Source: an uncultured Alphaproteobacteria bacterium (GTDB taxonomy: Bacteria; Pseudomonadota; Alphaproteobacteria; ATCC43930; CGMCC-115725). From it: a DNA stretch of 64,000 nucleotides. A program made the position numbers and the translations under genes. The notes below the pieces were generated by a model. The model searched no databases. It was not told the DNA's origin and saw only the letters and a list, made by a program, of their open reading frames with translations. The stretch covers positions 15,240 to 79,239 of the forward strand of contig CAWBKF010000014.1 in the NCBI GenBank assembly GCA_963789275.1. Direction: 5' to 3'. Shown piece by piece: positions 8,913 to 62,189 of this stretch (within the stretch, counting starts at the first letter, position 1; each line of letters begins with the position of its first letter).

Positions 8913-10695
8913 ATGGGCATGAAACGTCGTGATGTGTTGAAAGGCGCTGCGGCAACGGCGGCCGTCGTCGCCGGCGGCGCCGCGATCCTGACCCCGAAAC
9001 CGAGCTATGCGCAGCAGGTCGATGCCGCCAAGAAATGGGTCGAGTTCGGAATTTCAGCCCTCGACGCTCAGCAAAGAGCAGCAGATGGCCGAGATGGAGT
9101 GGTTCATCAAGGCCTCGCAGCCCTTCAAGGGACTGAAGGTCAGCTGCGTCTCCGAAATCCTCAGCATCCACGAGTATGAGTTGAAGACGCTGACCAAGGC
9201 GTTCGCCGATATCACCGGCATCCAGGTCAATCACGAGATGATGGACGAGGGCTTGCTGGTCGACAAGATCGAGGTCGAGATCCAGTCCGGCAAGCCGATC
9301 TACGATTTCTGGATGAACGATTCCGATTTCATCGGCACGCATCCGCGCTACAACGACATCGTCGGCGGCTCCTTGACCGACTTCATGAAGAACGACGGCA
9401 AGGACATCACCAATCCGAACCTCGATCTCAAGGACTTCATCGGCCTGTCGTTTGCGACCTTCACCGACAACAAGCTCTATCAACTCCCCGATCAGCAATT
9501 CGCCAACCTCTATTGGTTCCGTTACGACTGGTTCCAGCGGCCGGAGATCAAGGCGGGCTTCAAGAAGCAGTTCGGCTATGAGCTCGGCGTCCCCGTGAAC
9601 TGGTCGGCTTATGAGGACATCGCCGAGTTCTTCACCAACACCGTCAAGGAAGTCGACGGGCAGCGCGTCTACGGCCATATGGATTACGGCAAGAAGGATC
9701 CCTCGCTCGGCTGGCGCTTCACCGACGCCTGGCTGTCGATGGCCGGCAACGGCGACCGCGGCCTGCCGAACGGGCGGCCGGTGGACGAGTGGGGCATCCG
9801 CATGGAGGACGGCATCCCGCGGGGATCGTCGGTCTCCCGCGGCGGCGACGCCAATGGTCCCGCGGCGGTCTATGCGCTGACGAAATTCGTCGAATGGCTG
9901 AAGAAATACGCGCCGCCCGAAGCCGCCGGCATGGATTTCCTCGAGGCCGGCGCGGTGCCGGGCCAGGGCCATATCGCGCAGCAGATCTTCTGGTACAGCG
10001 CCTTCACCCATGCGCTGTCGCAGCCGGATCTGCCGGTCATGAACAAGGACGGCACGCCGAAATGGCGCATGGCGCCGAGTCCGCACGGCGCCTATTGGAA
10101 AGAGGGCATGAAGCTCGGCTACCAGGACCAGGGCTGCTGGACCTTCCTCAAATACGCCCCCATGGACCACATCAAGGCGGGCTGGCTCTATGCCCAGTTC
10201 TGCGTGTCGAAGACGGTGACGCTGAAGAAATCCGTCACCTCGCTGCATCTCATCCGCGAGAGCGACATCTGGGCACCCGCAATGACGGAGCTGGCGCCCA
10301 AGGTGGGCGGGCTGGTCGAGTTCTATCGCAGTCCCGCACGCAAGCTGTGGACACCGACCGGCGTCAACGTGCCCGAATACGGCAAGCTGGCGCAGGTGTG
10401 GTGGCAGAACGTGTCCAAGGCCATCTCCGGCGAGGCGACGCCGCAGCAGGCAATGGATGCGCTTGCCGCGGCCCAGGATTCGATCATGGCCCGCGTCGAG
10501 AAGTCCGGCGTCCAAGGCAAGCTCGGACCCAAGCTCAACGAGGAGAAGGATCCCGAATACTGGTACGCCAAGGCGGAAAAGGACGGCAACCTCGCGCCGC
10601 AAAGGAAGCTCGCGAATGAGAAGCCGCAAGGCGTCACCATCGACTATGACGAGCTGCTCAAGACGTGGAAGGCCGAGATGCCGCAAAAGCAGTAG
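8913..10695 (+). pseudogene. ABC transporter substrate-binding protein with TAT signal, frame disruption at about 9045
   Basis: AGGAGGAG Shine-Dalgarno then MGMKRRDVLKGAAATAAVVAGGAAILTPKPSYAQQVDAAKKWV. The mature protein continues in track ORF 9007..10695 (SEFQPSTLSKEQQMAEMEWFIKASQPF...). Removing one T from gagTTcgg at 9045-9046 restores a single frame. Confidence 0.8.
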
Positions 10696-23922: not shown

Positions 23923-26900
23923 TCAGGCCAGGGCGGCGGTCTGCGTCGTCGTCAGCGCCGAGATCTGGAAAAAGGTCAGGCTGTTGACCTGGGTGGCGGT
24001 GAACGCCCCGAGCTGGGTGGTGGTGAGCGCTGCGAGCTGGGCCGGGAGGAATCCCGGGAGCTGCGTCGCGGCGATGGCCCCGATTTCCGTCGCGGTCAGC
24101 CCCGCGAGCTGACCCGGCGCGAGCTCGCCGATCCCCGTCGCGGTGAAGCCGCCGAGCTGCGTCGTGCTGAGCGCGCCGAGCTGCGTCGCGGTCAGGCCGG
24201 CGACCTGCGTCGGATTGAAAGCGCTGATTTGGGTCGCCGTCACCGCCGCAAGCTGCGTCGTGTTGAGCCCGCCGACCTGCACCGGCGTCAGCGCTTCGCT
24301 CTCGGTCGTCGTCAGCGAAGAGACCTGCTGCAACGTCAAGCTGATGACCTGGTTGAAGGTAAGCGCGCCGAGCTGCGTCGTGGTGAGCGACGCGAGCTGG
24401 CTCGAGACCAAGCCCGTGAGCTGCGTCGGAGCGATGATACCGACCTCCGTCACGGTCAGGCCACCGAGCTGCGTCGCCGTGAGACCGCCGAACTGCGTCT
24501 GCGGTGAGGCCCGTGAGCTGGGCCGGGCTCAGGGCGCCGATTTGCGTCGCGGTGAGCCTGCCAGTCTGCGTCGCGCTCAGCGCGCCGATCTCGGTCGCCG
24601 TCAGGCCGGTGATTTGCGTCGTCGGGTCGAGAGCGCCGATCTCGGCTCGCGGTGAACCCGCCGATTTGCGTCGCGGAGAGGACGCCAAGCTGCGTCGCGC
24701 TCAAAGCCTCGAGCTGCGTGGTCGAGAGCGCGCCGAGCTGAGGCGCGCTGAGGCCGCCGGCCTGCGTCGTGCTGAGGGCGCTGATCGCGGTGGTGGCGAG
24801 GCCGCCGATTTGCGTCGTCGACAGGGCGCCGAGTTGCGCCGGTGTGAGCCCCGCGGCCTGCGCCGTGGTGAGGACGCTGAGCTCGGTGGTGCTGAACCCG
24901 CCGATTTGCGTCGTTGACAGGGCACCGAGTTGCGTTGCCGTGAGCGCGCCGGCCTCGGTCGCGCCGAGGGCGCCGATCTCGGTCGCGGTCAGGCCACCGA
25001 CCTGCGTCACGGAGAGCGCGCCGATCTCGGTCGCGGTGAGCGCGCCGGCCTGGGTCGCGGTCAGCGCGCCGAGCTGCGTCGCCGTCAGGCCTTTGACCTG
25101 CGTCGTGGTCAGCCCGCCGAGCTGGGTCGCGGTTAGCGCGCCGAGCTGGGTCGAGCTCAGCGAGCCAAGCTGCGCCGCCGTCAGGCCGGGGGATTGCGTC
25201 GTCGGGTCCAACGCGCCGATCTCGGTCGCCGTGAGGCCGCCGATCTCGGTCGTGCTGAGGACGCCGAGCTGGGTCGCGCTGAGCGCGCCGGCCTCGGTCG
25301 CGGTGAGCGCGCCGAGCTGCGTCGCCGTCAGGCCCTGGACCTGCGCCGTGCTCAGAGCGCCGATCTCGGTCGCGGAGAAACCGCCGAGCTGGGTCGCCGG
25401 ATCGAGCGCGCCGAGCTGCGTCGCGGTGAGCGCGCCGAGCTGCGTCGCCGTCAGGCCGCCGATCTCGGTCGCCGTCAAGCCGCCGATCTCGCCCGTGCTG
25501 AGGGCGCCGATTTGTGTCGCCGTGAGCGCACCGGCTTGCGTCGCGGTGAGCGCGCCGATCTCGGTCGCGGTCAGGCCGCCAACCTGCGTCGCGCTGAGGG
25601 CACCGATCTCAGTTGCCGTCAGGGCGCCGGCTTGGGTTGCGCCGAGCTCGCCGATCTCCGTCGCGGTCAGGCCCTCGACCTGCGTCACGGTCAGGCCGCC
25701 AAGCTGGGTCGCGGTCAGCGCGCCGAGCTGCGTTGCGGTCAGCGCGCCCAGCTGCGCCGCGGTCAGACCAGGGCGATTGCGTCGTCGGATCGAACGCGCC
25801 GAGCTCGGTCGTGGTGAGCCCGCCGATCGCCGTCGTGCTGAGCGCGCCGAGCTCGGTCGCGGTGAGCGCGACAGCCTGGGTCGCGGTCAGCGCGCCAAGC
25901 TGCGTCGCCGTCAGGCCTGTGACCTGCGCCGTGCCCAGGGCGCCGATTTGCGTCGCGGAGAGACCGCCGAGCTGCGTCGACGCGCTGAGCGTGCCGAGCT
26001 GCGTCGCGGTGAGCGCGCCGAGCTGCGTCGCCGTCAGGCCGGCGATCTCGGTCGTATCGAGACCGCCGACCTCCGTTGTGGTGAGCGCGCCGATTTGCGT
26101 CGCCGTGAGCGCGCCGGCCTGTGTCGTCGAGAGGGCGCCGATATCGGCCGCCGTCAGGCCGTCGACTTGCGTCGCGGTGAGCGCGCCGATCTGCGTCGCG
26201 GTCAGGACGCCGACCTGCGTCACGCTGAGGCCGCCCAGCTGTGCCGCGGTGAGGCCGTTGACCTGGGTTGTGGTGAGTCCGCCCAGCTGCGTCAGGCCGA
26301 AGCCGCCGACCTGTGTGACCGTAAGCCCGCCGATTTGCGCCGCCGTAAGGGCGCCGGCCTGCGTCGTGACAAGGGCGCCGACCTGGGTTGCGCTGAACCC
26401 GCCGAGCTGCGTCGCGGTCAGAGCGCCGATTTGAGCGGCGGTGAGCGCGCCGGCCTGCGTCGTGGTGAAAGCACCGAGTTCCGTCGCGGTCACGCCCTTG
26501 ACCTGTGCCACGGTGAATGCGCCGATCTGGGTCGCCGTAACGCCGGCAAGCTGCGTCGTGGTGAGGGCGCCGATCTGCGTCGCGATCAGGCCGCCGACCT
26601 GCGCCGCGGTGAGGCCGCCAATCTCGGTCGCGCTGAGCCCGGCCGCCTGCGTCGTCGTCAGCAAGCCGATCTGCGCCGCGGTGAGCGCGCCAGCCTGCGT
26701 CGCGGAGAATCCGCCGAGATCCGTCGCGGTCAGGCCTTCGACCTGGACCGTGCCGAGGGCACCGATCTGCGTCGCGGTCAGCGCGTCGGTCTGCGTCGCC
26801 GTCAAGCTGCCGAATTGCGTCGTGGAGAGGCTGTCGACCTGCGCCGCGGTGAGGCCGCTGATTTCAGTCGTGGTGAGCGCGCCGAGCTGCGTTACGGCAA

Positions 26901-29151
26901 GCGCACCGATTTGCGCCGCGGTGAGGCCACCGGCCTGGGTCGCGGTGAGGCCGCCAACCTCCGTCGTCGTGAGGGCGCCGATCTGCGTCGTGCTGAGCGC
27001 GCCGATCGCCGCCGCCGTGAGGCCGCCGGCCTGCGTCGTGCTGAGCGCCCCAACCTCCGTCGTGGTCAGGCCCTTGACCTGCACCGCGCTCACGGCACCG
27101 ATTTGCGTCGCGGTGAGCCCGTCGAGCTGGGTTTGCGGGTCGAGCGCGCCGAGCTGCGTCGCGGTCAGGCCGCCGACCTGCGTGGTCGTCAGACCGGCGA
27201 TCTCGGTCACGGAGAGCCCGGCGAGCTGCGTCGTCGTCAGCGCGCCGATTTGTGGCGCCGTGAGCGCGCCGGCTTGCGTCGTGCTGAACGCGCCGATTTC
27301 GGAGACGGTCAGGCCCTTGATCTGTGTCGCGGTGAGCGCGCCGATTTGCGATCGCCGTGAGCGCGCCGGCTTGCGTCGTGGTGAGCGCGCCGATCGCGGT
27401 CGCGGTCAAGCCCTTGACCTGCGTCGCGGTCAGCCCCGTGATCTCAGTCGCGGTGAGCGCACCGGCCTGCGTCGCGGTGAACGCGCCAAGCTGCGTCGCG
27501 GTGAGGCCGGTGGATTGCGTCGTCGGATCGAGCGCCCCGATTTCGGTGGCGGTGAAGCCGCCGATCTGCGTCGCCGTGAGTGCGCCGATTTGCGTTGCCG
27601 TCAGGGCAGCGGCCTGCGTGGTGCTGAGCCCGCCAAGCTCCGTCGCGGTCAAGCCCTTGACCTGCGCGGCGCTCAGGGCACCGATTTGCGTCGCCGACAA
27701 CTCCGCCAAGCTGCGTCTGCGGGTCGAGCGCGCCGAGCTGCGTCGCGGTCAGGCCACCGACCTGCGTCGTCGTCAGACCGGCTATCTCGGTCGCGGTGAG
27801 CCCGGTGACCTGCGTCGTGGTCAGCGCACCGATTTGCGTCACCGTAAGCGCGGCGGCCTGCGTCGTGCTGAGCGCGCCTAGCTCCGTCGCGGTCAAGCCC
27901 TTGATCTGCGTCGTGCTGAACGCACCGGTTTGGGTCGCCGTCAGCGCGCCGGCCTGCGTCGTGCTGAGCGCGCCAATAGCGGTGGCGGTCAAGCCCTTGA
28001 CCTGGGTCACGGTCAGCCCGGTGATCTCGGTCGCGGTCAGCGCGCCGATCTGCGTCGTGGTGAAGGCGCCGAGCTGCGTCGCGGTCAGGCCGGGGGATTG
28101 CGTCGTCGGGTCGAGCGCACCGATCGCGGTGGTGGTGAGCCCGCCGACCTGCGTGGTGGTCAGCGCAGCGATTTGCGTCGCCGTCAGGGCGCTGACCTGC
28201 GTGGTGCTGAGCCCGCCAAGCTCGGTCGCGGTCAGGCCCTTGACCTGCGCGGCGCTCAGGGCACCGATTTGCGTCGCCGACAACCCGCCAAGCTGCGTCT
28301 GCGGGTCGAGCGCCCCGAGCTGGGTCGCGGTGAAGCCGCCGACCTGTGTCGTCGTCAGGCCGGTTATCTCGGTCGCGGTGAGCCCGGTGACCTGCGTCGT
28401 GGTCAGCGCGCCGATTTGCGTCGCCGTAAGCGCGCCGGCCTGCGTCGCGCTGAGCGCGCCGAGCTCCGTCGCGGTCAAGCCCTTGATCTGCGTCGTGCTG
28501 AGCGCACCGGTTTGGGTCGCGGTCAGGGCGCCGGCCTGCGTCGTGCTGAGTGCGCCAATAACAGTTCGCGGTCAAGCCCTTGACCTGGGTGACGGTAAGC
28601 CCGGTGATCTCGGTCGCGGTCAGCGCGCCGATCTGCGTCGTGGTGAAAGAGCCGATCTGCGTCGCGGTAAGGCCGGTGGACTGCGTCGTCGGATCGAGAG
28701 CGCTGATCTCGGTCGCCGTGAGCCCACCGATCTGCGTCGTGGTGAGCGCGCCGATATCGGTCGCCGTCAGGGCGGCCACCTGCGTCGCGCTGAAGGCACC
28801 GATCTCGGTCGCGGTCAAGCCCTTGACCTGGCTCGCGCCCAAAGCACCCAGCTGGGTCGCGTCGAGGCCCGCCACTTGCGCCGCCGTGAGGGCACCGAGC
28901 TGCGCCGCGCTCAGGCTGACGAGCTGCCAGGTGGCCAGCGTATCGAAGGCCGTGGCGGTCAGCGCGGCAATGGCCGTGATACTGATCTGAGGAAGCTGAG
29001 TGGTATTGAGTGCGTCCACTTCGGTGGACGTGGCGACGGCAGCTTGCGCGGCGTCGATCGCCTGTACGTCAGTGACAGCGAAGCGCTGTACCGCGGTCGC
29101 CGACAGGCCGGCGAATTGGGCCGGCGTTACATAGGCGATGAGCGAGGTCAT
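23923..29151 (-). pseudogene. giant Thr/Ser-rich octapeptide-repeat protein, paralogue 1, interrupted by at least 6 small indels
   Basis: GGAG lies 8 nt before ATG 29151. The N-terminus MTSLIAYVTPAQFAGLSATAVQRFAVTDVQ... is 71/120 identical (my count) to the intact neighbour. The repeat frame hops through track ORFs 27673..29151, 27444..28478, 26864..27709, 25609..27210, 24456..25688, 23222..24688 (N-terminal part) and 23923..24453. Switch points are near 28562, 27702, 27351, 25770, 24646 and 24505. Confidence 0.75.
27100..28900 (-). repeat. roughly 600-bp (about 25 octads) higher-order repeat, about 3 diverged copies inside paralogue 1
   Basis: Blocks starting at about 27127, 27712 and 28305 (caagctgcgtctgcgggtcgagcgc...) align with each other by eye, with scattered substitutions. 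They are much more diverged than the array in paralogue 2. Confidence 0.6.
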
Positions 29152-29312
29152 TGCATATGCTCCGCGCTCGGAGGGTCAGGCGGCGGCGTTTGCCGCCGCG
29201 AGGCCCGGCTGCGGAAATCCGTTGCCGCCGACACTGCGCCTGCCTCTCGAACCGGCACGCGGGACCGTTGCTCGATCTCGCGCACCCCGCGACCAGGGTC
29301 GCGGCCGACCGA

Positions 29313-32300
29313 TCACACCAGGGAGTCGAGCTGCGCCGTCGACAGGCTCCCGACCTGGGTTGAGTTGAAGCCACCGATCTGGGTGACGGTGAACGTCGCT
29401 AGCTGCGTTGTGGTCAGGCTCTGGATCTGCGCCGTGCCAAGTTCGGTGATCTCGCTCGCCGTCAGGCCCTTGATCTGCGCCGTGGTGAGCGCCTGGACCT
29501 GCGCCGTCGTCAGCGCGTTGAGCGCCGCCGAGCTGAGACTGCTGATCTCGGCCGTGGTGAGGCCGGTGATCTGCGTCGCCGTGCTCAGCGACTGGATCTG
29601 CGCGCTGGTCAGGCCGCCGATGGCGGTCGTCGTCAGCGCCCCGATATCCTGCGAGGTCAGCCCGGTGAGCTGCGTCGCCGCGCTGAACGCGTTGACCTGG
29701 GTCGAGGTCAGGCCCTTGACCTGCGTCGTGCTCAGCGCCCCGATCTGCGCCGAGGTCAGCGCCGCCGTGTTCAGGCTCGGCAGCTGCGCCGCCGTCAGCC
29801 CGGTGACCTGCGTCGCCGTGCTCAGCGCCTGGATCTGCGCCGAGGTCAGGCCGCCGATCTGCGTCGCGTTGAGCGCGCCGATCTGCTGCGAGGTCAGCCC
29901 GTCCACCTGCGTCGCCGTGGCGAGCGCGGTGATCTCCGAGGCGGTGAAGCCGGCGATCTGCGCCGTCGTCAGCGCCCCGATATCCTGCGAGGTCAGCCCG
30001 GTCAGCTGCGTCGCCGTGCTCAGCGCGCCGATCTCGGTCGTGCTCAGGCCCTTGACCTGCGCCGTGCTCAGCGCCCCGATCTGCGCCGAGGTCAGCGCCG
30101 CCGTGTTCAGGCTCGGCAGCTGCGTCGCCGTCAGCCCGGTGAGCTGCGTCGCCGTGCTCAGCGCCTGGATCTGCGCGCTGCTCAGGCCGCCGATCTGCGT
30201 CGTCGTCAGCGCCCCGATATCCTGCGAGGTCAGCCCGGTCAGCTGCGTCGCCGCGCTGAACGCGTTGATCTGGGTCGAGGTCAGACCCTTGACCTGCGTC
30301 GTGCTCAGCGCCCCGATCTGCGCCGAGGTCAGCGCCGCCGTGTTCAGGCTCGGCAGCTGCGCCGCCGTCAGCCCGGTGACCTGCGTCGCCGTGCTCAGCG
30401 CCTGGATCTGCGCCGAGGTCAGGCCGCCGATCTGCGTCGCGTTGAGCGCGCCGATCTGCTGCGAGGTCAGCCCGTCCACCTGCGTCGCCGTGGCGAGCGC
30501 GGTGATCTCCGAGGCGGTGAAGCCGGCGATCTGCGCCGTCGTCAGCGCCCCGATATCCTGCGAGGTCAGCCCGGTCAGCTGCGTCGCCGTGCTCAGCGCG
30601 CCGATCTCGGTCGTGCTCAGGCCCTTGACCTGCGCCGTGCTCAGCGCCCCGATCTGCGCCGAGGTCAGCGCCGCCGTGTTCAGGCTCGGCAGCTGCGTCG
30701 CCGTCAGCCCGGTGAGCTGCGTCGCCGTGCTCAGCGCCTGGATCTGCGCGCTGCTCAGGCCGCCGATCTGCGTCGTCGTCAGCGCCCCGATATCCTGCGA
30801 GGTCAGCCCGGTCAGCTGCGTCGCCGCGCTGAACGCGTTGATCTGGGTCGAGGTCAGGCCCTTGACCTGCGTCGTGCTCAGCGCCCCGATCTGCGCCGAG
30901 GTCAGCGCCGCCGTGTTCAGGCTCGGCAGCTGCGCCGCCGTCAGCCCGGTGACCTGCGTCGCCGTGCTCAGCGCCTGGATCTGCGCCGAGGTCAGGCCGC
31001 CGATCTGCGTCGCGTTGAGCGCGCCGATCTGCTGCGAGGTCAACCCGTCCACCTGCGTCGCCGTGGCGAGCGCGGTGATCTCCGAGGCGGTGAAGCCGGC
31101 GATCTGCGCCGTCGTCAGCGCCCCGATATCCTGCGAGGTCAGCCCGGTCAGCTGCGTCGCCGTGCTCAGCGCGCCGATCTCGGTCGTGCTCAGGCCCTTG
31201 ACCTGCGCCGTGCTCAGCGCCCCGATCTGCGCCGAGGTCAGCGCCGCCGTGTTCAGGCTCGGCAGCTGCGTCGCCGTCAGCCCGGTGAGCTGCGTCGCCG
31301 TGCTCAGCGCCTGGATCTGCGCGCTGCTCAGGCCGCCGATCTGCGTCGTCGTCAGCGCCCCGATATCCTGCGAGGTCAGCCCGGTCAGCTGCGTCGCCGC
31401 GCTGAACGCGTTGATCTGGGTCGAGGTCAGACCCTTGACCTGCGTCGTGCTCAGCGCCCCGATCTGCGCCGAGGTCAGCGCCGCCGTGTTCAGGCTCGGC
31501 AGCTGCGCCGCCGTCAGCCCGGTGACCTGCGTCGCCGTGCTCAGCGCCTGGATCTGCGCCGAGGTCAGGCCGCCGATCTGCGTCGCGTTGAGCGCGCCGA
31601 TCTGCTGCGAGGTCAACCCGTCCACCTGCGTCGCCGTGGCGAGCGCGGTGATCTCCGAGGCGGTGAAGCCGGCGATCTGCGCCGTCGTCAGCGCCCCGAT
31701 ATCCTGCGAGGTCAGCCCGGTCAGCTGCGTCGCCGTGCTCAGCGCGCCGATCTCGGTCGTGCTCAGGCCCTTGACCTGCGCCGTGCTCAGCGCCCCGATC
31801 TGCGCCGAGGTCAGCGCCGCCGTGTTCAGGCTCGGCAGCTGCGTCGCCGTCAGCCCGGTCAGCTGCGTCGCCGTGCTCAGCGCCTGGATCTGCGCGCTGC
31901 TCAGGCCGCCGATCTGCGTCGTCGTCAGCGCCCCGATATCCTGCGAGGTCAGCCCGGTCAGCTGCGTCGCCGCGCTGAACGCGTTGATCTGGGTCGAGGT
32001 CAGACCCTTGACCTGCGTCGTGCTCAGCGCCCCGATCTGCGCCGAGGTCAGCGCCGCCGTGTTCAGGCTCGGCAGCTGCGCCGCCGTCAGCCCGGTGACC
32101 TGCGTCGCCGTGCTCAGCGCCTGGATCTGCGCCGAGGTCAGGCCGCCGATCTGCGTCGCGTTGAGCGCGCCGATCTGCTGCGAGGTCAACCCGTCCACCT
32201 GCGTCGCCGTGGCGAGCGCGGTGATCTCCGAGGCGGTGAAGCCGGCGATCTGCGCCGTCGTCAGCGCCCCGATATCCTGCGAGGTCAGCCCGGTCAGCTG

Positions 32301-34628
32301 CGTCGCCGTGCTCAGCGCGCCGATCTCGGTCGTGCTCAGGCCCTTGACCTGCGCCGTGCTCAGCGCCCCGATCTGCGCCGAGGTCAGCGCCGCCGTGTTC
32401 AGGCTCGGCAGCTGCGTCGCCGTCAGCCCGGTCAGCTGCGTCGCCGTGCTCAGCGCCTGGATCTGCGCGCTGCTCAGGCCGCCGATCTGCGTCGTCGTCA
32501 GCGCCCCGATATCCTGCGAGGTCAGCCCGGTCAGCTGCGTCGCCGCGCTGAACGCGTTGATCTGGGTCGAGGTCAGACCCTTGACCTGCGTCGTGCTCAG
32601 CGCCCCGATCTGCGCCGAGGTCAGCGCCGCCGTGTTCAGGCTCGGCAGCTGCGCCGCCGTCAGCCCGGTGACCTGCGTCGCCGTGCTCAGCGCCTGGATC
32701 TGCGCCGAGGTCAGGCCGCCGATCTGCGTCGCGTTGAGCGCGCCGATCTGCTGCGAGGTCAACCCGTCCACCTGCGTCGCCGTGGCGAGCGCGGTGATCT
32801 CCGAGGCGGTGAAGCCGGCGATCTGCGCCGTCGTCAGCGCCCCGATATCCTGCGAGGTCAGCCCGGTCAGCTGCGTCGCCGTGCTCAGCGCGCCGATCTC
32901 GGTCGTGCTCAGGCCCTTGACCTGCGCCGTGCTCAGCGCCCCGATCTGCGCCGAGGTCAGCGCCGCCGTGTTCAGGCTCGGCAGCTGCGTCGCCGTCAGC
33001 CCGGTGAGCTGCGTCGCCGTGCTCAGCGCCTGGATCTGCGCGCTGCTCAGGCCGCCGATCTGCGTCGTCGTCAGCGCCCCGATATCCTGCGAGGTCAGCC
33101 CGGTCAGCTGCGTCGCCGCGCTGAACGCGTTGATCTGGGTCGAGGTCAGCCCCTTGACCTGCGTCGTGCTCAGCGCCCCGATCTGCGCCGAGGTCAGCGC
33201 CGCCGTGTTCAGGCTCGGCAGCTGCGCCGCCGTCAGCCCGGTGACCTGCGTCGCCGTGCTCAGCGCCTGGATCTGCGCCGAGGTCAGGCCGCCGATCTGC
33301 GTCGCGTTGAGCGCGCCGATCTGCTGCGAGGTCAGCCCGTCCACCTGCGTCGCCGTGGCGAGCGCGGTGATCTCCGAGGCGGTGAAGCCGGCGATCTGCG
33401 CCGTCGTCAGCGCCCCGATATCCTGCGAGGTCAGCCCGGTCAGCTGCGTCGCCGTGCTCAGCGCGCCGATCTCGGTCGTGCTCAGGCCCTTGACCTGCGC
33501 CGTGCTCAGCGCCCCGATCTGCGCCGAGGTCAGCGCCGCCGTGTTCAGGCTCGGCAGCTGCGTCGCCGTCAGCCCGGTGAGCTGCGTCGCCGTGCTCAGC
33601 GCCTGGATCTGCGCGCTGCTCAGGCCGCCGATCTGCGTCGTCGTCAGCGCCCCGATATCCTGCGAGGTCAGCCCGGTCAGCTGCGTCGCCGCGCTGAACG
33701 CGTTGATCTGGGTCGAGGTCAGACCCTTGACCTGCGTCGTGCTCAGCGCCCCGATCTGCGCCGAGGTCAGCGCCGCCGTGTTCAGGCTCGGCAGCTGCGC
33801 CGCCGTCAGCCCGGTGACCTGCGTCGCCGTGCTCAGCGCCTGGATCTGCGCCGAGGTCAGGCCGCCGATCTGCGTCGCGTTGAGCGCGCCGATCTGCTGC
33901 GAGGTCAGCCCGTCCACCTGCGTCGCCGTGGCGAGCGCGGTGATCTCCGAGGCGGTGAAGCCGGCGATCTGCGCCGTCGTCAGCGCCCCGATATCCTGCG
34001 AGGTCAGCCCGGTCAGCTGCGTCGCCGTGCTCAGCGCGCCGATCTCGGTCGTGCTCAGGCCCTTGACCTGCGCCGTGCTCAGCGCCCCGATCTGCGCCGA
34101 GGTCAGCGCCGCCGTGTTCAGGCTCGGCAGCTGCGTCGCCGTCAGCCCGGTGAGCTGCGTCGCCGTGCTCAGCGCCTGGATCTCCGCGCTGCTCAGGCCG
34201 CCGATCGCGGTCGTCGTCAACGCCCCGATCTGCTGCGAGGTCAGCCCGGTGACCTGAGTCGTCGGGCTGAGCTCGCCAATCTCGGTCGAGGTCAGGCCTT
34301 TTGCCGCCGTCACGCTGAAGGCGCCGATCTGCGCCGAGCTGAGCCCACCGATCTGCGACGGGGTCAGGACGCTAAGCTGCGCGGCATTCAAAGTGAAGAG
34401 CTGCCAGGTGGCGAGCGAATCGATGGCGGTAGCGGTCAGCGCAGCGACATCGGTGGTGTTGAGCGCCTGGATCTGCGACGTGCTCAGCGCGTCGACTTCC
34501 GTAGCCGTGGCAGCTGCCGCCTGCGCGGCGCTGATCGACTGAATATCGGTGACGGAGAGATTCTGGATGGCTGTCGTCGACAGCGCCGCGAACTGACTCG
34601 GCGACAGCAGGGTGATAAGCGAGGTCAT
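29313..34628 (-). CDS. giant Thr/Ser-rich octapeptide-repeat protein, paralogue 2 (1771 aa, intact)
   Basis: Uninterrupted ORF with GGAG 8 nt before the ATG. From residue ~7 to the C-terminus it is built of [LF]-[ST]-x-[ST]-[QE]-[ILV]-x-x units (LTSAQIGA, LSTTEIGA, LTTTQIGG...). No signal peptide, no Cys, no non-repeat domain. Third codon positions are GC-rich on this strand. Confidence 0.85.
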   Translation of the reverse strand: MTSLITLLSPSQFAALSTTAIQNLSVTDIQSISAAQAAAATATEVDALSTSQIQALNTTDVAALTATAIDSLATWQLFTLNAAQLSVLTPSQIGGLSSAQIGAFSVTAAKGLTSTEIGELSPTTQVTGLTSQQIGALTTTAIGGLSSAEIQALSTATQLTGLTATQLPSLNTAALTSAQIGALSTAQVKGLSTTEIGALSTATQLTGLTSQDIGALTTAQIAGFTASEITALATATQVDGLTSQQIGALNATQIGGLTSAQIQALSTATQVTGLTAAQLPSLNTAALTSAQIGALSTTQVKGLTSTQINAFSAATQLTGLTSQDIGALTTTQIGGLSSAQIQALSTATQLTGLTATQLPSLNTAALTSAQIGALSTAQVKGLSTTEIGALSTATQLTGLTSQDIGALTTAQIAGFTASEITALATATQVDGLTSQQIGALNATQIGGLTSAQIQALSTATQVTGLTAAQLPSLNTAALTSAQIGALSTTQVKGLTSTQINAFSAATQLTGLTSQDIGALTTTQIGGLSSAQIQALSTATQLTGLTATQLPSLNTAALTSAQIGALSTAQVKGLSTTEIGALSTATQLTGLTSQDIGALTTAQIAGFTASEITALATATQVDGLTSQQIGALNATQIGGLTSAQIQALSTATQVTGLTAAQLPSLNTAALTSAQIGALSTTQVKGLTSTQINAFSAATQLTGLTSQDIGALTTTQIGGLSSAQIQALSTATQLTGLTATQLPSLNTAALTSAQIGALSTAQVKGLSTTEIGALSTATQLTGLTSQDIGALTTAQIAGFTASEITALATATQVDGLTSQQIGALNATQIGGLTSAQIQALSTATQVTGLTAAQLPSLNTAALTSAQIGALSTTQVKGLTSTQINAFSAATQLTGLTSQDIGALTTTQIGGLSSAQIQALSTATQLTGLTATQLPSLNTAALTSAQIGALSTAQVKGLSTTEIGALSTATQLTGLTSQDIGALTTAQIAGFTASEITALATATQVDGLTSQQIGALNATQIGGLTSAQIQALSTATQVTGLTAAQLPSLNTAALTSAQIGALSTTQVKGLTSTQINAFSAATQLTGLTSQDIGALTTTQIGGLSSAQIQALSTATQLTGLTATQLPSLNTAALTSAQIGALSTAQVKGLSTTEIGALSTATQLTGLTSQDIGALTTAQIAGFTASEITALATATQVDGLTSQQIGALNATQIGGLTSAQIQALSTATQVTGLTAAQLPSLNTAALTSAQIGALSTTQVKGLTSTQINAFSAATQLTGLTSQDIGALTTTQIGGLSSAQIQALSTATQLTGLTATQLPSLNTAALTSAQIGALSTAQVKGLSTTEIGALSTATQLTGLTSQDIGALTTAQIAGFTASEITALATATQVDGLTSQQIGALNATQIGGLTSAQIQALSTATQVTGLTAAQLPSLNTAALTSAQIGALSTTQVKGLTSTQINAFSAATQLTGLTSQDIGALTTTQIGGLSSAQIQALSTATQLTGLTATQLPSLNTAALTSAQIGALSTAQVKGLSTTEIGALSTATQLTGLTSQDIGALTTAQIAGFTASEITALATATQVDGLTSQQIGALNATQIGGLTSAQIQALSTATQVTGLTAAQLPSLNTAALTSAQIGALSTTQVKGLTSTQVNAFSAATQLTGLTSQDIGALTTTAIGGLTSAQIQSLSTATQITGLTTAEISSLSSAALNALTTAQVQALTTAQIKGLTASEITELGTAQIQSLTTTQLATFTVTQIGGFNSTQVGSLSTAQLDSLV
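29580..34250 (-). repeat. 573-bp (191-aa) tandem higher-order repeat, about 8 near-identical copies
   Basis: The marker gctgaacgcgttgatctgg recurs at 30255, 30828, 31401, 31974, 32547, 33120 and 33693, an exact 573-bp period, plus a diverged copy at about 29682. Only a few single-base differences separate the units. Confidence 0.9.
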
Positions 34629-34663
34629 CTAATCTTCTCCGCGCTCCAGATTTTCACCGATCA

Positions 34664-34703
34664 CAGAATCTCGTTAGCTATTCCAGAGTCTCGTTAGCTA
34701 TTC
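34664..34703. promoter_or_regulatory. 20-bp tandem direct repeat upstream of repeat-protein gene 2
   Basis: cagaatctcgttagctattc / cagagtctcgttagctattc, one mismatch. It lies 36-75 nt upstream of ATG 34628 in an AT-richer divergent intergenic region. The function is inferred only. Confidence 0.35.
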
Positions 34704-35063
34704 CACGCAGGGTGCGGAGATTAGGCTGTCGTCGATGAAAAAACTCCTAATTCACGCGACAAACAAACGTACTGCGCCCGCACCCGCCGCGGACCTTGCC
34801 GTGGCCGCGCGTCGCAATGGTTTCGTTATGAAAGTCAGCAGGTTACCGACGATCTCTCGAGCGCCAACGCACCGCTCGTCGCCCCTCGCCGCGCGCGTCA
34901 TCACCTTCACACGATCGCGCAAGCGAAGAAAAAACGTCGGAAAACATCGTTACTATTCTTGCGCATCGCGACTTTCTGATCGCCGCGGCATCGTGGTTAC
35001 TAATCATTAAGGCCGACGTGCCAAGCTGGACAAAGTAGAGAGCACTTCCGTGGTGGAGCGAGC

Positions 35064-35171
35064 ATGCCGATACCGGCCGCCTCAGCGCCGAACATTGAGA
35101 ACGTGATTTCCGACGTCCGCTTGCTGTCGGCGCAGGACGCCCCGACCCCGGCGCCTCCGCGAGTCGCATGA
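35064..35171 (+). CDS. possible 35-codon leader ORF coupled to the GT41 gene
   Basis: GGTGGAG lies 5 nt before ATG 35064 (MPIPAASAPNIENVISDVRLLSAQDAPTPAPPRVA). Its TGA overlaps ATG 35168 (ATGA). It could instead be the true GT41 N-terminus separated by an indel. Confidence 0.3.
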   Translation: MPIPAASAPNIENVISDVRLLSAQDAPTPAPPRVA

Positions 35172-37255
35172 CGCCGCTGGGAGCCAGCGCCGCCGAAGTG
35201 ATAGAGCTGCTGCCCGACCGGGCTGCGGGGCGGACGGAAACCATCTTGCCGGCGGTCTTCACTGCGGCCGTGGCGAAAGCGTCAGCGCAGGCGCTCGAGC
35301 CGGGCGACTTGATCACCGCGACCCAGGCGCTCGCCAGCGCCAAACAACCGGCGCTCGTCCAGCAACTCTACAAAAGCTGGCTCGCTCACAACCCGGACCA
35401 TCCGTCGCGACATGTGATCTTGTTCAACTATGGCGTCACGCTCTCCGATGCCGGCGATCTCGCCGCTGCCCGCGACACCTTCCTCGAGGCGATCGCACTT
35501 CAAAAGGATTTCCTGCCGCCCTGCATCAATGTGGGAGTGGTGCTGGAACGGATGGGGGCGACCGACCAGGCGATTGTCCAGTGGTATCACGTGGCGAACG
35601 CCGTCGTTCCCGTCGACGGCAACGCCATCGGCTACAAGACGGTGGCGTTGAAGCAGATCGCGCGAGTGCTCGAGACCGCACGCTACGAGGCGCAAGCCGA
35701 GGATGCGCTGCGGCTGAGCCTGGAGATAAATCCTCATCAGCGGGAGCCGATCCAGCACTGGATCTTCCTGCGCCAGGGCCAGTGCAAGTGGCCGGTGCTG
35801 ACGCCCTGGGCGAACGTGACCCGCCCCCTGCTGATGGAGAGCTTCTATCCCTTGTCGCTGGCCTATTACGCCGATGATCCGCTGTTCCAGCTGGGCACCG
35901 CCAATCAGTACAGCAAGCTCGACGTCGGCAGGCCCGCCATCGCCACTGTCGGCAGCTGGCCGGCACCCCTCCCCACGCAGCAGCGGCGGCTGCGCGTCGG
36001 CTATCTCTCGTCGGATCTGCGCGCCCATGCCGTGGGCTTCCTGACCAGCGAAATGTTCGAGCTCCACGACCGCAAGCAGGTCGAGGTTTTCGCCTATTAC
36101 TGCGGCATCCGGGCCGAGGATGAGACCAAGGCAAGGATCCGACAGGCGGTCGATCACTGGGTCGACATCAACGATCTCAGCGATCACCAGGCCGCGCGCC
36201 GGATCGTCGAGGACGGGATCGACATCCTGGTGGACCTCAACGGCTATTCGAAGGATGCGCGCTCGAAGGTCTTCGCGCTGCGTCCGGCGCCGATCATCGT
36301 CAACTGGCTGGGCTATCCCGGCACGATGGGCAGCCCCTATCACCACTACATCATCGCCGACGACTACATCATCCCGCGCGGCCACGAAATCTACTATTCG
36401 GAAAAGGTGCTGCGGCTGCCCTGCTACCAGCCGAACGACCGCAAGCGCGTCATCGCCGCCGCGCGGCCAACGCGCCGCGAAGCCGGGCTGCCGGAAGAGG
36501 GCACGGTCTATTGCTCCTTCAACGCTACGCAGAAAATCACGCCTGCGGTCTTCGCCCACTGGATGACGATCCTGTCGCGCGTCCCGGACAGCGTGCTGTG
36601 GTTCCTCGCCGGGGCCGCGGACACGGAGGAGCGGCTGCGGCAACTGGCGACGCCGCTCGGCATCGCGCCGGAGAGGCTGATCTTTGCCGCGCGGGCGCCA
36701 AATCCCGAGCACATGGCGCGCTTCGCGCTGGCCGACGTGCTGCTGGATACTTGGCCCTACGGCTCGCACACCACGGCCTCCGACGCGCTGTGGCTGGGCG
36801 TGCCCGTGCTGACGGTCTCCGGCCGCGGTTTCGCGTCGCGCGTCTGCGGCAGCCTCCTCCACGCCGCCGGGCTGGGCGAGCTGGTCTGCAACAGCTTCGA
36901 TGAGTATGTCGAGCGGGCGGTGACGCTCGGCCGCGACAAAGCCGCGCTAAGGAACTACAAGGACCGGCTGATCGCGAACCGCGACGGTTGCACGCTCTTC
37001 GACACGAACTTGCTGGTGCGCAAGCTCGAGGCGCTCTTCGCCCGGATGTGGGAGGATTACTGCCGCGGCGAATTGCCGGTGCCGACGCTGACCAATCTCG
37101 AGCTCTACCACGAGATCGGCACCCAGGAAGACATCGAGTCCTCGGGCGCGCTGTCGTCCGTCGACTATCACGATCGTTATCGCCGGGCCCTCGCCTACCG
37201 CGACAGCCTTTCGCGGCTGCCGGCCGATGGCCGGCTGTGGCCGGGCGGCGGTTGA
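35168..37255 (+). CDS. TPR-containing GT41-family glycosyltransferase (OGT/SPINDLY/HMW1C-like)
   Basis: 695 aa. The N-terminal third is TPR-like (YKSWLAHNPDHPSRHVILFNYGVTLSDAGDLAAARDTFLEAIAL...). The C-terminal part matches the COG3914/GT41 pattern as I recall it: RVGYLSSDLRAHAVGFL, VNWLGYPGTMGSPYHHYIIAD, LPCYQPND, VYCSFNATQKITP, DTWPYGSHTTASDALWLGVPVLT. Confidence 0.8.
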   Translation: MTPLGASAAEVIELLPDRAAGRTETILPAVFTAAVAKASAQALEPGDLITATQALASAKQPALVQQLYKSWLAHNPDHPSRHVILFNYGVTLSDAGDLAAARDTFLEAIALQKDFLPPCINVGVVLERMGATDQAIVQWYHVANAVVPVDGNAIGYKTVALKQIARVLETARYEAQAEDALRLSLEINPHQREPIQHWIFLRQGQCKWPVLTPWANVTRPLLMESFYPLSLAYYADDPLFQLGTANQYSKLDVGRPAIATVGSWPAPLPTQQRRLRVGYLSSDLRAHAVGFLTSEMFELHDRKQVEVFAYYCGIRAEDETKARIRQAVDHWVDINDLSDHQAARRIVEDGIDILVDLNGYSKDARSKVFALRPAPIIVNWLGYPGTMGSPYHHYIIADDYIIPRGHEIYYSEKVLRLPCYQPNDRKRVIAAARPTRREAGLPEEGTVYCSFNATQKITPAVFAHWMTILSRVPDSVLWFLAGAADTEERLRQLATPLGIAPERLIFAARAPNPEHMARFALADVLLDTWPYGSHTTASDALWLGVPVLTVSGRGFASRVCGSLLHAAGLGELVCNSFDEYVERAVTLGRDKAALRNYKDRLIANRDGCTLFDTNLLVRKLEALFARMWEDYCRGELPVPTLTNLELYHEIGTQEDIESSGALSSVDYHDRYRRALAYRDSLSRLPADGRLWPGGG

Positions 37256-37275: not shown

Positions 37276-38016
37276 CTAGCGCTTGACGACCGTACGGCAG
37301 GAGTAGTCGACGCGGTTGAGCTTCACCGCGATGCCGTGCTTGGCAAAATAGGCATCCACCGCTTCTCTCTGGCCCTTGTAGTGACCGTAATCGTCGATGA
37401 CGAGCACGCCGCCGCGCGAGAGCGGCGGCCAGAATACCTCCATCGAGATCTGCGCGCTCGGAAACCAGTCGGTATCGAGCCGCACGATGGCAAAAGCTGG
37501 CGCGGTTGGCGCACGCGCCGTCTCCTCTACCATGCCCTTGACCAATTTCACCGGGCCGCGGTAACCGGTCGATGCCATGTTGGCAGCCACTTCCTCGACG
37601 CCGACCCGCCCCCACTCCGTGGTCCCATCGGCCTTCACATTGGCCTGCCAGTCATCGATCGCGCGGCGGCCCCAGAGATCGACCTCGTTTTCGGAAGGCA
37701 TCGGATGGCCTTCGAAGGTATCGTAGAGCCAGAGCCCCCGAGAGGTGTCGCCGAGCATCTGCAGCGTCTTGGCGACAAGCATCATCGAGCCGCCGCGCCA
37801 CACGCCGCACTCGACGATGTCGCCGGGCACACCCGCTCTGACGATGTATTCGACCGACTTGTAGAGATCGAACATCCTCTCCACGGAGGTCATCGTGAAG
37901 GAGCGCACCGCGTTGAAGATCGGCGCGAAGTCGCGGTCCATATCGGCATAGCCGGCGACCCGATCCTGCCGTTGCATCAGGTCCTGATAGTCGATCATGA
38001 AGGGCGTTCCATCCAC
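37276..38016 (-). CDS. TylF/MycF-family SAM-dependent O-methyltransferase
   Basis: 246 aa. GDIVECGVWRGGS ... LYDTFEG ... VRLDTDWFPS ... GGVLVIDDYGHYKG is the macrocin-O-methyltransferase family signature. Confidence 0.8.
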   Translation of the reverse strand: MDGTPFMIDYQDLMQRQDRVAGYADMDRDFAPIFNAVRSFTMTSVERMFDLYKSVEYIVRAGVPGDIVECGVWRGGSMMLVAKTLQMLGDTSRGLWLYDTFEGHPMPSENEVDLWGRRAIDDWQANVKADGTTEWGRVGVEEVAANMASTGYRGPVKLVKGMVEETARAPTAPAFAIVRLDTDWFPSAQISMEVFWPPLSRGGVLVIDDYGHYKGQREAVDAYFAKHGIAVKLNRVDYSCRTVVKR

Positions 38017-38070: not shown

Positions 38071-38982
38071 TCACGCCGCGGCCTGGGGGGCCTGCATCGA
38101 CTCCTGGATGGCTTGAATCTCCGCCTGCATGACGGCCGCCATCTGTAGCGCCTGCGCCTTCAAGCGCTCGTAGCGGGCATCAGGCGCGCCGGCGCCGATC
38201 CTCTGTTCGTATTGCGCGTAATCGCTGCTGCGCAGCACGCCGTTGACATAGAGCGAGCGACCCTCGACCAGCGGGTAGTGGCGCAGCAGCATCTCTTTGC
38301 GCCAAGGCGGATCGAGAAATTCCGGCGAGCGGATGATGTCAAAGGCGCAACGGCGGCGGACGATCTGTCCGAGGTCGTAGAAATCGGCCCAGAAGGCCAG
38401 CTCGCGGAGCTCCTGCGTGCCGGGACGGCGGCTGGTGTCGATATGGACATCGGCGAATGAGATGCGGTCGATTAGGCGCACGATGTCGTCCAGCCAGTGA
38501 TCGATGAACCAGTAGGGGAAATAGGGCGGATAGATGAAGCCCATCTTCTTGGCGAGACCATGCGTGATCCCGTTGATCTGCGGGAAGGACGCATTGGCGA
38601 GGTGGTTGTAGACGACGCCGATGTTGTCGGGGAAACGCGCCGCCGCCTCGAGGATCTTGGCGTCGAACCCCGGCGTGATGTGCGGCCCGTAATCCACCAT
38701 GGCGAGATAGACGTCCGCCGGCACCTGGAGCGCGCGATTGTATTTCCCGCCGAGCGAATCCTCGCGTTGCGCGACGACCGGCCGCAAGCGGCGGTCGACG
38801 GGCAAGTGCGGCAGAGCGTCGATCGTCTTCTGGTCGTCGTGATCGACCGAGATCATGAAGATCGTGGTCGGCAGCACGATATTGGGCAGCGTCTCTTGGA
38901 CCGTGCGGAGGAGCAATTCGGGGCGCCCGCGCGTGCACAGGTTGATGGTCAGCGTCAGGTCGCTCACGTGTTCACCCCTCAC
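38071..38982 (-). CDS. hypothetical protein, possibly GT-A-like glycosyltransferase
   Basis: 303 aa. The N-terminus (TLTINLCTRGRPELLLRTVQETL...IFMISVDHDDQKT) looks like a GT2-type Rossmann start with an acidic DxD-like motif. I recognise no firm family. Confidence 0.45.
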   Translation of the reverse strand: MRGEHVSDLTLTINLCTRGRPELLLRTVQETLPNIVLPTTIFMISVDHDDQKTIDALPHLPVDRRLRPVVAQREDSLGGKYNRALQVPADVYLAMVDYGPHITPGFDAKILEAAARFPDNIGVVYNHLANASFPQINGITHGLAKKMGFIYPPYFPYWFIDHWLDDIVRLIDRISFADVHIDTSRRPGTQELRELAFWADFYDLGQIVRRRCAFDIIRSPEFLDPPWRKEMLLRHYPLVEGRSLYVNGVLRSSDYAQYEQRIGAGAPDARYERLKAQALQMAAVMQAEIQAIQESMQAPQAAA

Positions 38983-39166: not shown

Positions 39167-39242
39167 TGGTGGAGCAGAGGGGGATCGAACCCCTGACCTC
39201 GACATTGCGAACGTCGCGCTCTCCCAACTGAGCTACTGCCCC
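39167..39242 (-). tRNA. tRNA-Ala (anticodon CGC)
   Basis: The reverse complement GGGGCAGTAGCTCAGTTGGGAGAGCGCGACGTTCGCAATGTCGAGGTCAGGGGTTCGATCCCCCTCTGCTCCACCA folds as a cloverleaf. It has the G3:U70 identity pair, anticodon loop TTCGCAA and an encoded CCA. Confidence 0.9.
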
Positions 39243-58667: not shown

Positions 58668-59401
58668 AGGCGCTGGTGACGCGGCCGGAAGCGGATGCGG
58701 CGCCGCTGGCGCGCGCGCTGGCCGAGCGCGGCATCGAGACGCTGCTGGCGCCACTCATCAGCATCGAGCCGGTGCCGGACGCGGCAAAACGCCTTGCCGA
58801 TGCGATGATCGGCGCGCAGGCGCTGCTCTTCACCAGCGCCAATGGCGCGCGGATGTTCGCAAGCGCCTCGGCGCGGCGCGAGCTGCCGGTGCTCGCCGTC
58901 GGCGACGCCACGGCGGCGGCGGCGCGGCTCGCCAATTTCCGCAGCGTCGCCAGCGCCGGCGGCGATGTCGGGGATCTCGCGGCGTTGGCGGCGGCGCGGC
59001 TCGCGCCGGCGCACGGCGCGCTGGTGCATGTCGCCGGCAGCGTCACCGCCGGCGATCTCGCGGGGGCGCTCGAGGCCGAGGGCTTCCAGGTGCGGCGCGC
59101 GGTGATCTATGAGGCGCGGCCGGCGCGCGCGCTGGCGCCGGAGACCGCGGCTGCGCTTGCCTCGGGCGCGGTCGGGCTGGCGCTGTTTTTCTCTCCCCGC
59201 ACCGCCGCCCTCTTTGTTAGGCTGGCCGGCGACGCTGGGCTGGCGGAGTCCTGCCGCGCGATGACGGCGCTCGCCTTGAGCCCGGCGGTGGCGGAATCGC
59301 TGGCGGCGCTGCCATGGGCCCGCGTGCTGATCGCGGGCGCGCCGACTCAGGCGGATCTGCTGGCGGCGCTCGACGCCTATCGGAGCAAAGGAGCGGCATG
59401 A
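58664..59401 (+). CDS. hemD: uroporphyrinogen-III synthase
   Basis: GTGA overlap with the restored hemC stop. MKALVTRPEADAAPLARALAERGIETLLAPLISIEPV...FTSANGARMF... Position after hemC. Confidence 0.75.
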   Translation: MKALVTRPEADAAPLARALAERGIETLLAPLISIEPVPDAAKRLADAMIGAQALLFTSANGARMFASASARRELPVLAVGDATAAAARLANFRSVASAGGDVGDLAALAAARLAPAHGALVHVAGSVTAGDLAGALEAEGFQVRRAVIYEARPARALAPETAAALASGAVGLALFFSPRTAALFVRLAGDAGLAESCRAMTALALSPAVAESLAALPWARVLIAGAPTQADLLAALDAYRSKGAA

Positions 59402-61957: not shown

Positions 61958-62032
<75 letters not shown>

Positions 62033-62189
62033 GCGTAAAGTTTCTGCTGACGCTGGACTATTCGAAGGTCGGGACGCGGTTGGGCGCAACCGTGGCAGGT
62101 GTGCACCCACGAAGCTTTGGCTCGACAGGCCATAGGCCTTTCACTAGTTTTGAGGTCCCCTCATTAGCTGTTTCCGATCGGAAGTCGGT

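Follow-up and report, generated by a model that had tools for sequence, protein, structure and literature searches.

The stretch of DNA analysed here, 64,000 nucleotides from an uncultured alphaproteobacterium (contig CAWBKF010000014.1; referred to as the window), contains a block of five protein-coding genes, two of which encode giant repeat proteins. Gene 1 (29313..34628) and its paralogue, gene 2 (23923..29151), lie in tandem on the minus strand. A gene for a glycosyltransferase of family GT41, to all appearances of the O-GlcNAc transferase (OGT) type (35168..37255, plus strand), is divergent from gene 1, and beyond it are minus-strand genes for a TylF-family (macrocin-type) O-methyltransferase (37276..38016) and for a protein of 303 amino acids with a predicted GT-A glycosyltransferase fold (38071..38982). 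A tRNA-Ala(CGC) gene (39167..39242, minus strand) stands at the edge of the block. Taken together, and with a probability that we put at roughly 0.6, the locus would encode a secreted, O-glycosylated alpha-solenoid fibre accompanied by its own glycosyltransferase, gene 2 being an intact second copy of the fibre gene. This reading builds on the family membership and repeat anatomy of the giants, the intact OGT-type catalytic motifs of the GT41 enzyme and the conserved adjacency of the two kinds of gene.

Gene 1 is an intact open reading frame (ORF) running from ATG to stop, and its 1771-aa product, which starts with MTSLITLLSPSQF and ends in ...STAQLDSLV, consists of short repeats from about residue 4-7 to the last residue. 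About 204 repeat units can be parsed (162 of eight and 42 of nine residues), accounting for 1674 of the 1771 residues, and the loose motif [LF][STNDA]xx[QE][ILVF] occurs 136 times, as against 4.2 ± 1.9 times in composition-preserving shuffles. The protein is dominated by Thr (20%), Ala (17%), Leu (14%), Gln (12%), Ser (10%) and Gly (9%), with 1% Pro; a composition count found no Cys, Arg, His or Tyr, and a motif scan found no GGxGxD. The preliminary description, made from the sequence alone, had recognised the intact ORF, the absence of Cys and GGxGxD and the general architecture of paired paralogues in tandem, composed entirely of a Thr/Ser-rich octapeptide, all of which our analyses bear out. 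Its statement that the giants lack a signal peptide, RTX motifs, an autotransporter or two-partner secretion (TPS) domain and any other domain likewise agrees with our profile searches and motif scan. The strict form that it gave for the unit, [LF][ST]x[ST][QE][ILV]xx, is too narrow, matching only 53 units of gene 1.

A second level of repetition, also noted before as a unit of 191 residues, is real in the DNA: at 29668..34208 (minus strand), inside gene 1, about 7.9 near-identical units of 573 bp follow one another, and the autocorrelation of the gene 1 sequence peaks at 0.91 at a lag of 573. Ser and Thr make up 58 of the 191 residues of this unit, exactly as counted earlier. Neighbouring copies differ by only 12 mismatches, and this points to a recent expansion of the array. 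The orthologue in a related Stellaceae genome (L084) has 3368 aa and a unit of 585 bp, so that both copy number and unit length evidently change quickly. A plus-strand ORF of 2153 aa (27796..34257), which lies antisense to the repeats and crosses the spacer between the two giant genes, was rejected as a gene and is regarded as a by-product of the repeats and the high G+C content. The repeat gene of many relatives has a sense frame that is open for thousands of codons and broken antisense frames (2738 vs 138 aa in L016); in a few, the antisense frame is likewise long. Codon usage in gene 1 is skewed: of its 303 Ala codons, 264 are GCG, compared with 234 of 488 in a set of seven housekeeping genes, and Gln is encoded by CAG at all 207 positions. 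The presence of a tRNA-Ala(CGC) gene at the edge of a block with so GCG-rich a gene may be a coincidence.

The giants had been described as belonging to no recognised family, which is refuted by a match of gene 1 to the Pfam family PF20080 (ALTTAQ_rpt) with 762.5 bits (E = 5e-236) in 63 stretches, the curated gathering cut-off being 26.4 bits. Slices of 300 and 200 aa suffice for 130 and 121 bits, respectively, and both gene 1 and gene 2 are, on their sequences, members of this family. A profile match to an already characterised repeat family had been named beforehand as the observation that would overturn the claim of novelty, and this is half of what was found: the family is catalogued yet functionally uncharacterised, no functional study having come to light, and the literature searched contains no paper on the ALTTAQ name. 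NCBIfam has no family model for the ALTTAQ giant. A representative library of 1.84 billion proteins yielded 1318 relatives at E <= 1e-3, many of them 1000-4500 aa long. In the family-profile searches, weak matches were to helical domains and to a leucine-rich repeat (LRR) domain. In a word-indexed search, the commonest partners of the repeats were the PF26745 module SPM, a calpain-type protease, the NF038122 metalloprotease and RTX repeats. The SPM partner, which begins with a PLVLDLNGDG-type sequence, is the self-processing module of RTX proteins (PMC7078468), and partner domains of these kinds are usual in extracellular proteins that leave the cell by type I secretion. Unlike the many catalogued members in which the repeats precede one of these modules, the proteins of the window are repeat to the last residue, without any further domain. 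Repeat genes of this kind break short-read assemblies and gather indel errors in long-read ones, with systematic under-annotation as the result.

Gene 2 is separated from gene 1 by a spacer of 161 bp (29152..29312, minus strand), which holds GAGCGCGGAG-N8-ATG, the gene 2 copy of the duplicated start context, and in which a scan found no terminator-like or promoter-like site. The GGAG-N8-ATG context reported before both starts is indeed present, inside the common GAGCGCGGAG. The paralogy claimed from 71 identical residues among the first 120 also stands, though the count itself is 70 of 120. The preliminary description took gene 2 for an open frame matching gene 1 in size and missed that this frame is broken by six +1 single-base insertions, near 28563, 27703, 27353, 25770, 24647 and 24500. 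As written, the gene contains many in-frame stops, the repeat frame following the path 2>0>1>2>0>1>2; deletion of the six bases yields a clean ORF of 1740 aa with canonical repeats and no stop. A related contig (L003; ERZ25039540 contig_22196), about 98% identical to the window overall and about 96% across gene 2, carries only one of the six insertions, that near 27703, together with one of its own. The 205 substitutions between the two versions fall mostly at codon position 3 (129, or 63%) and comprise 130 synonymous and 75 nonsynonymous changes. We conclude from this comparison that gene 2 has evolved as a coding gene. Given the five insertions missing from L003 and the third-position bias, it is probably live, an intact second copy whose six frameshifts are probably uncorrected long-read assembly errors. 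Broken or truncated housekeeping genes in L003 indicate that Flye-style assemblies of this kind are error-prone; genes for a luciferase-like monooxygenase, glyoxalase II, an M3 peptidase and a CoA transferase are truncated or split in the long-read-style contigs L003 and L002, indel errors being common in such assemblies.

The strongest competitor to this account of gene 2 is that it is a true, recently inactivated pseudogene and that gene 1 alone is functional. Six frameshifts in 5.2 kb stand out against the full-length family matches of the other window genes checked, none of the insertions lies within a long homopolymer, and one is present also in the independent contig L003. Against this, five of the six insertions are missing from L003, the substitutions are mainly synonymous and at third positions, no stop is left once six bases are removed, and the related assemblies are visibly error-prone; we regard inactivation as a serious but clearly less probable possibility.

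The second component of the locus, the GT41 gene adjoining gene 1, is its most informative feature and was missed in the preliminary description. Its 695-aa product matches PF13844 with 297.8 bits (E = 1.5e-88; cut-off 25), and an N-terminal tetratricopeptide repeat (TPR) region is indicated by a TPR_12 match of 27.5 bits, below the cut-off of 30.1. The closest solved relatives are XcOGT of Xanthomonas campestris (XCC0866; PDB 2jlb; 2e-83) and human OGT (1e-80), followed by SPINDLY (1e-55) and HMW1C/NGT (1e-8). In the alignment with XcOGT, the HTTASDALW motif and the His in VGYLSSDLRAH fall on identical residues, and H287, K456, H534, T535, T536 and D539 are invariant in 26 aligned relatives, as are the asparagines N75, N87 and N121 of the TPR region. 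By its domain, its TPRs, the catalytic His, the UDP-binding Lys and the HTT..D motif, the enzyme thus classifies as an OGT-type member of GT41, and its sequence is nearer to OGT than to the fucosyltransferase SPINDLY. XcOGT and human OGT resemble it in both the catalytic-site motifs and the N-terminal TPR region.

The association of this enzyme with the giants extends far beyond the window. We fetched 80 genomic loci solely by GT41 similarity (41-75% identity) and detected ALTTAQ ORFs in them by a six-frame motif scan. In all, at least 595 GT41 hits were obtained. The loci represent Alphaproteobacteria of several orders, Magnetococcales, Solidesulfovibrio, Geobacter, Opitutaceae, Marinimicrobia, Acidobacteriota, Sulfuritalea, Accumulibacter and Thiothrix. 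In 58 of the 80, an ALTTAQ ORF ends at most 700 bp upstream of the GT41 gene on the same strand; these ORFs range from 147 to more than 3200 aa, the shortest being cut by contig ends. An ALTTAQ ORF is found anywhere in the locus in 66 cases, and in five of the 14 others the sequence upstream is shorter than 700 bp. PF20080 was confirmed in four GT41-linked giants, from a Caulobacter metagenome-assembled genome (MAG), Roseomonas alba, an Acidobacteriota MAG and Solidesulfovibrio. As a control, we scanned 80 metagenomic loci (971 kb) around XcOGT-like GT41 genes, and none contained an ALTTAQ ORF. With 58 of 80 loci as against none of the 80 control loci, the link is far beyond chance and specific to this GT41 subfamily. 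The idea that XcOGT shares the partnership was accordingly rejected.

The two kinds of sequence also meet within one protein: P0061 (472 aa), encoded in two independent contigs (L087, 5813..7231; L088, 272..1690), joins the TPR domain of this GT41 family (32% identity to residues 53-231 of the window enzyme) directly to ALTTAQ repeats. In L087, its gene adjoins genes for a flagellin of 1420 aa and an RgpF-type rhamnosyltransferase. Clustering of ORFs across the loci found a sugar-nucleotide epimerase/dehydratase-type short-chain dehydrogenase/reductase in 19 of them. In seven loci (L017, L019, L020, L044, L050, L057 and L073), two or three GT41 paralogues stand in a row beside the giant, which suggests more than one glycosylation step or specificity. 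Further ALTTAQ genes occur downstream of the GT41 gene in L006 (one), L009 (one) and L064 (two), paralleling the tandem pair of the window. An ORF cluster provisionally called 'unk746' runs antisense to GT41 genes and was set aside as an apparent artefact.

The direct adjacency in dozens of distant bacteria makes the giant the likely target of the GT41 enzyme. It could be objected that the giant is no substrate at all, the two genes being neighbours through shared regulation or the enzyme modifying flagellin, the secretion machinery or a cytoplasmic target instead. Flagellin genes do occur near the giant-GT41 pair in four loci (as an ORF cluster typed from L015) as well as beside P0061, several loci carry two or three GT41 paralogues, the giant is missing from 14 of the 80 loci, and none of the bacterial OGT homologues treated in PMC4683255 has a reported native protein substrate. 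Against this stand the position of the giant, directly upstream and on the same strand in 58 of 80 loci from several phyla and in none of the 80 loci of the other GT41 subfamily, its Ser/Thr content of 30%, the existence of a TPR-ALTTAQ fusion protein and the small number of loci with flagellin, and we consider it unlikely that the enzyme serves another target.

If the giant is indeed the substrate, the adjacent TPR-GT41 protein would be its dedicated cytoplasmic O-glycosyltransferase, as the conserved gene order suggests, adding sugar to Ser and Thr residues of the repeats. In the genome represented by the window, the glycan may then be extended by the GT-A-fold transferase and methylated by the TylF-type enzyme, to judge again from gene order. 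The giant would leave the cell by type I secretion of the HlyB/HlyD type, encoded elsewhere in the genome, and outside it might, more speculatively, act as a glycosylated fibre, coat or adhesin.

The export step draws on the relatives of the window. ABC-transporter ORFs clustering with an HlyB-type representative are found in 17 loci and HlyD adaptor (membrane fusion protein, MFP) ORFs in 11. The two form an adjacent pair in at least nine loci, and the order ABC-MFP-giant-GT41 occurs in six; in some of these, a methyltransferase gene, another GT41 or another ALTTAQ gene comes next. Roseomonas alba HJA6 is a culturable carrier of this arrangement. Substrates of type I secretion lack a signal peptide, carry their secretion signal within the last ~50 residues, depend on an ABC transporter, MFP and TolC and are often encoded near these components. 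The GT41-linked giants begin with M[ST][IV]SSLSxxQIxALS..., their repeats starting a few residues after the Met, and no signal peptide was found at their N-termini or at that of the window protein. At the other end, 53 of 67 giants terminate 2-9 residues past two final units of the form F..Q...M...Q..A[LY]; the window protein terminates in ...QLDSLV.

To get some insight into the fold of the repeats, we ran AlphaFold2 (AF2) on residues 101-400 of the gene 1 protein with an alignment of 75 rows. The model has a mean predicted local distance difference test score (pLDDT) of 85.8, a predicted template modelling score of 0.78 and a single residue of the 300 below 50. It contains 31 helices of 4-6 residues, about one per repeat unit, and no strands. 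When the sequence is mapped onto it, Thr or Ser precedes the helix (N-cap), Gln or Glu is the third helix residue (N3), and Leu and Ile/Val occupy fixed buried positions. The pattern S/T-x-x-E/Q is the classical helix capping box. In the predicted structure, each unit L-[T/S]-x-x-[Q/E]-[I/L/V]-x-x would thus form one helix of about 1.5 turns, with Leu and Ile/Val providing the core and Gly/Ala the turns, and some 200 such units would stack into a long alpha-solenoid rod with Thr/Ser hydroxyls over its surface. The best structural match in Foldseek, though a weak one, is the alpha-superhelix of mesothelin (E = 2.4e-3, TM score 0.32-0.39, root-mean-square deviation ~10 Å), whose helices are much longer than the 5-6 residues of the ALTTAQ model. 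A 2251-aa ALTTAQ-like giant in a planctomycete-like context (L169, 6001..12756) shows a faint match to Pfam Mesothelin.

The repeats might instead be an intrinsically disordered, mucin-like Ser/Thr polymer, glycosylated by the GT41 enzyme but unfolded and owing any stiffness to its sugars only. The low-complexity composition given above would suit such a polymer, as would the absence of a matching solved structure and the self-similarity of the alignment behind the model, and OGT-type enzymes bind extended peptides (PMC5493779). Yet the hydrophobic residues (positions 1 and 6) and those of the capping box recur with strict periodicity and are shared by members from different phyla, the model is confident nearly throughout, and Pro, in which mucin-like regions are usually rich, accounts for only 1% of residues, so disorder strikes us as quite improbable. 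The beta-solenoid of 16- or 24-residue coils with TxT ladders proposed in the preliminary description, by analogy with the 8/16/48 hierarchy of ice-nucleation proteins and with ice-binding proteins, has only the octapeptide period, the T/S-x-T/S triplets and a superficially similar hierarchy to recommend it, and is hardly tenable given an all-helical model without a single strand, capping boxes that fall on helix starts, weak family matches to helical or LRR domains and no ice-nucleation family at E <= 1 in Pfam or NCBIfam.

Several observations nevertheless weigh against the reading of the locus as encoding a secreted, glycosylated alpha-solenoid with a dedicated GT41 enzyme and an intact second copy. 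No type I secretion gene is present among the genes checked in the 64-kb window, and only 11-17 of the 80 related loci have such genes nearby. The divergent order in the window differs from the co-directional order, giant and then GT41, of the 58 loci. Four ALTTAQ proteins of other architectures (P0015, P0074, P0397 and P0398) have no GT41 gene within 6-8 kb, and the notion that all ALTTAQ proteins are GT41-linked was rejected on this basis. The frameshifts in gene 2, all six of them insertions outside long homopolymers and one common to L003, fit neither simple sequencing error nor simple gene decay. As to the fold, a Foldseek search of the repeat model against the PDB gave no match at E <= 1e-3, and AF2 can assign too much order to a low-complexity repeat when the alignment is self-similar.

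Comparison with known systems helps to place the locus. The HMW1/HMW1C pair of Haemophilus influenzae, like the window locus as read here, combines a very large secreted protein with a dedicated cytoplasmic GT41 enzyme encoded beside it. HMW1C, however, lacks TPRs, attaches N-linked hexose at NX(S/T) and is only a distant match to the window enzyme (E = 1e-8), and HMW1 is exported by two-partner secretion with a TPS domain, whereas gene 1 has none, nor does its product show a C-terminal beta-barrel translocator with a Sec signal peptide. In Gram-positive bacteria, the serine-rich repeat adhesins GspB and Fap1 are giant Ser/Thr repeat proteins O-glycosylated in the cytoplasm by the neighbouring GtfA/GtfB before export. 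Those systems employ a GT4 enzyme pair, an accessory Sec pathway, a long signal peptide, an LPXTG anchor and disordered SASASAST-type repeats. We found no KxYKxGKxW signal peptide, Ser-rich regions flanking a binding region, LPXTG motif or SecA2/SecY2/GtfAB in gene 1 or its window neighbours checked. XcOGT-type enzymes, for all their likeness in the catalytic site, differ from the window subfamily in having no ALTTAQ neighbour.

Giants exported by type I secretion, such as the RTX adhesins (e.g. LapA) and FrpC-type clip-and-link proteins, share with the ALTTAQ giants their size and the lack of a signal peptide. The likeness extends to the HlyB/HlyD genes that adjoin the giant in relatives of the window and to the SPM modules that ALTTAQ repeats precede elsewhere (PMC7078468). 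Unlike RTX and LapA-type proteins, gene 1 encodes no GGxGxD calcium-binding repeats, Ig-like or VCBS domains or retention module; nonapeptides of the form GGxGxDxUx are missing, and PF00353 gives no match at E <= 1. Ice-nucleation proteins of the InaZ family resemble gene 1 in the eight-residue base period, the higher-order units and the richness in Thr and Ser, but the gene 1 repeats are predicted to be helical rather than beta, their consensus differs, and neither 16-residue AGYGSTxTAxxxSxLx-type repeats nor a match to that family was found (Pfam and NCBIfam, E <= 1).

Since 2008, structural work has used bacterial O-GlcNAc transferase homologues in place of the human enzyme. For the Thermobaculum homologue, in-vitro activity was undetectable, and the biological mechanisms by which mutation of the Synechococcus homologue produces its phenotypes have been described as not understood (PMC4683255). 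Our literature searches returned nothing relevant on substrates of bacterial OGTs or on GT41 enzymes in connection with type I secretion, nor any account of a type I secretion substrate glycosylated in the cytoplasm by an OGT-type enzyme; the ALTTAQ-GT41 partnership appears undescribed in the literature searched. Its presence in 58 of 80 loci from several phyla singles out a specific candidate substrate, open to experiment, for one large GT41 subfamily. We go further only tentatively, at somewhat less than an even chance, in proposing that the pure ALTTAQ giants are the native substrates of a large bacterial GT41 subfamily and a new kind of secreted glycoprotein, a rod of ~200 mini-helix units that receives O-linked sugars over its full length in the cytoplasm and leaves the cell by type I secretion. 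Such proteins, if they exist, would be a Gram-negative counterpart of the serine-rich repeat adhesins and mucins, and the solenoid of eight-residue helical units, should the prediction hold, would represent a new repeat-protein geometry without a solved counterpart. Cultured carriers are at hand in Roseomonas alba, Neoroseomonas rubea, Methylobacterium carpenticola, Oryzibacter oryziterrae, Phenylobacterium sp. LjRoot219 and Azospirillum sp. RU38E.

The remaining genes of the block are consistent in their types with glycan modification as proposed above. The TylF-type methyltransferase (246 aa; PF05711, E = 1.7e-40; no NCBIfam match) is encoded at the same position in L001, L002 and L084. The 303-aa protein has no Pfam or NCBIfam match, and its AF2 model (pLDDT 93.1) gives 176 PDB matches at E <= 1e-3 in Foldseek, including TarP, PcManGT, ppGalNAc-T and WrtF at E = 1e-8 to 1e-6. 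D47, D49, D50 and D97 are invariant, and the modelled Rossmann-like fold with an acidic DxD-type motif is that expected of a GT-A enzyme. Relatives of this protein are sometimes fused to Methyltransf_24 (P0389). The same block occurs in four other contigs of related organisms, and three of these contigs (L001, L002 and L004) end within the repeat gene.

The intergenic region between gene 1 and the divergent GT41 gene (34629..35167) contains a 20-bp direct repeat, CAGAATCTCGTTAGCTATTC, present twice in tandem (34664..34705). The pair lies 36-77 nt ahead of the gene 1 start codon and could be a regulator binding site. A scan of this region found no sigma-70-like consensus, and scanning three intergenic regions for promoters and terminators gave no useful information. 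The window belongs to a metagenome-assembled genome of Stellaceae, and its ArgG, FolD, CinA and M3-peptidase sequences cluster with proteins labelled 'Stellaceae bacterium'. Most genes checked around the locus serve housekeeping or general metabolism (argG, folD, hemC/hemD, tsaD and gpsA), and the G+C content of the window is ~0.68-0.72. A tRNA-Thr(CGT) gene at 61958..62032 is followed by a fall in G+C from ~0.75 to 0.54 (61958..64000), possibly the edge of an integrated element. An ORF of 562 aa at 9007..10695 (plus strand) lies in a region of lower G+C (~0.63) and has coding-like G+C at third codon positions and no Pfam match. Within the hemC-hemD-hemY cluster, the gene at 59314..60480 (plus strand) encodes a protein of 388 aa with a Mitofilin (MICOS Mic60-like) domain.

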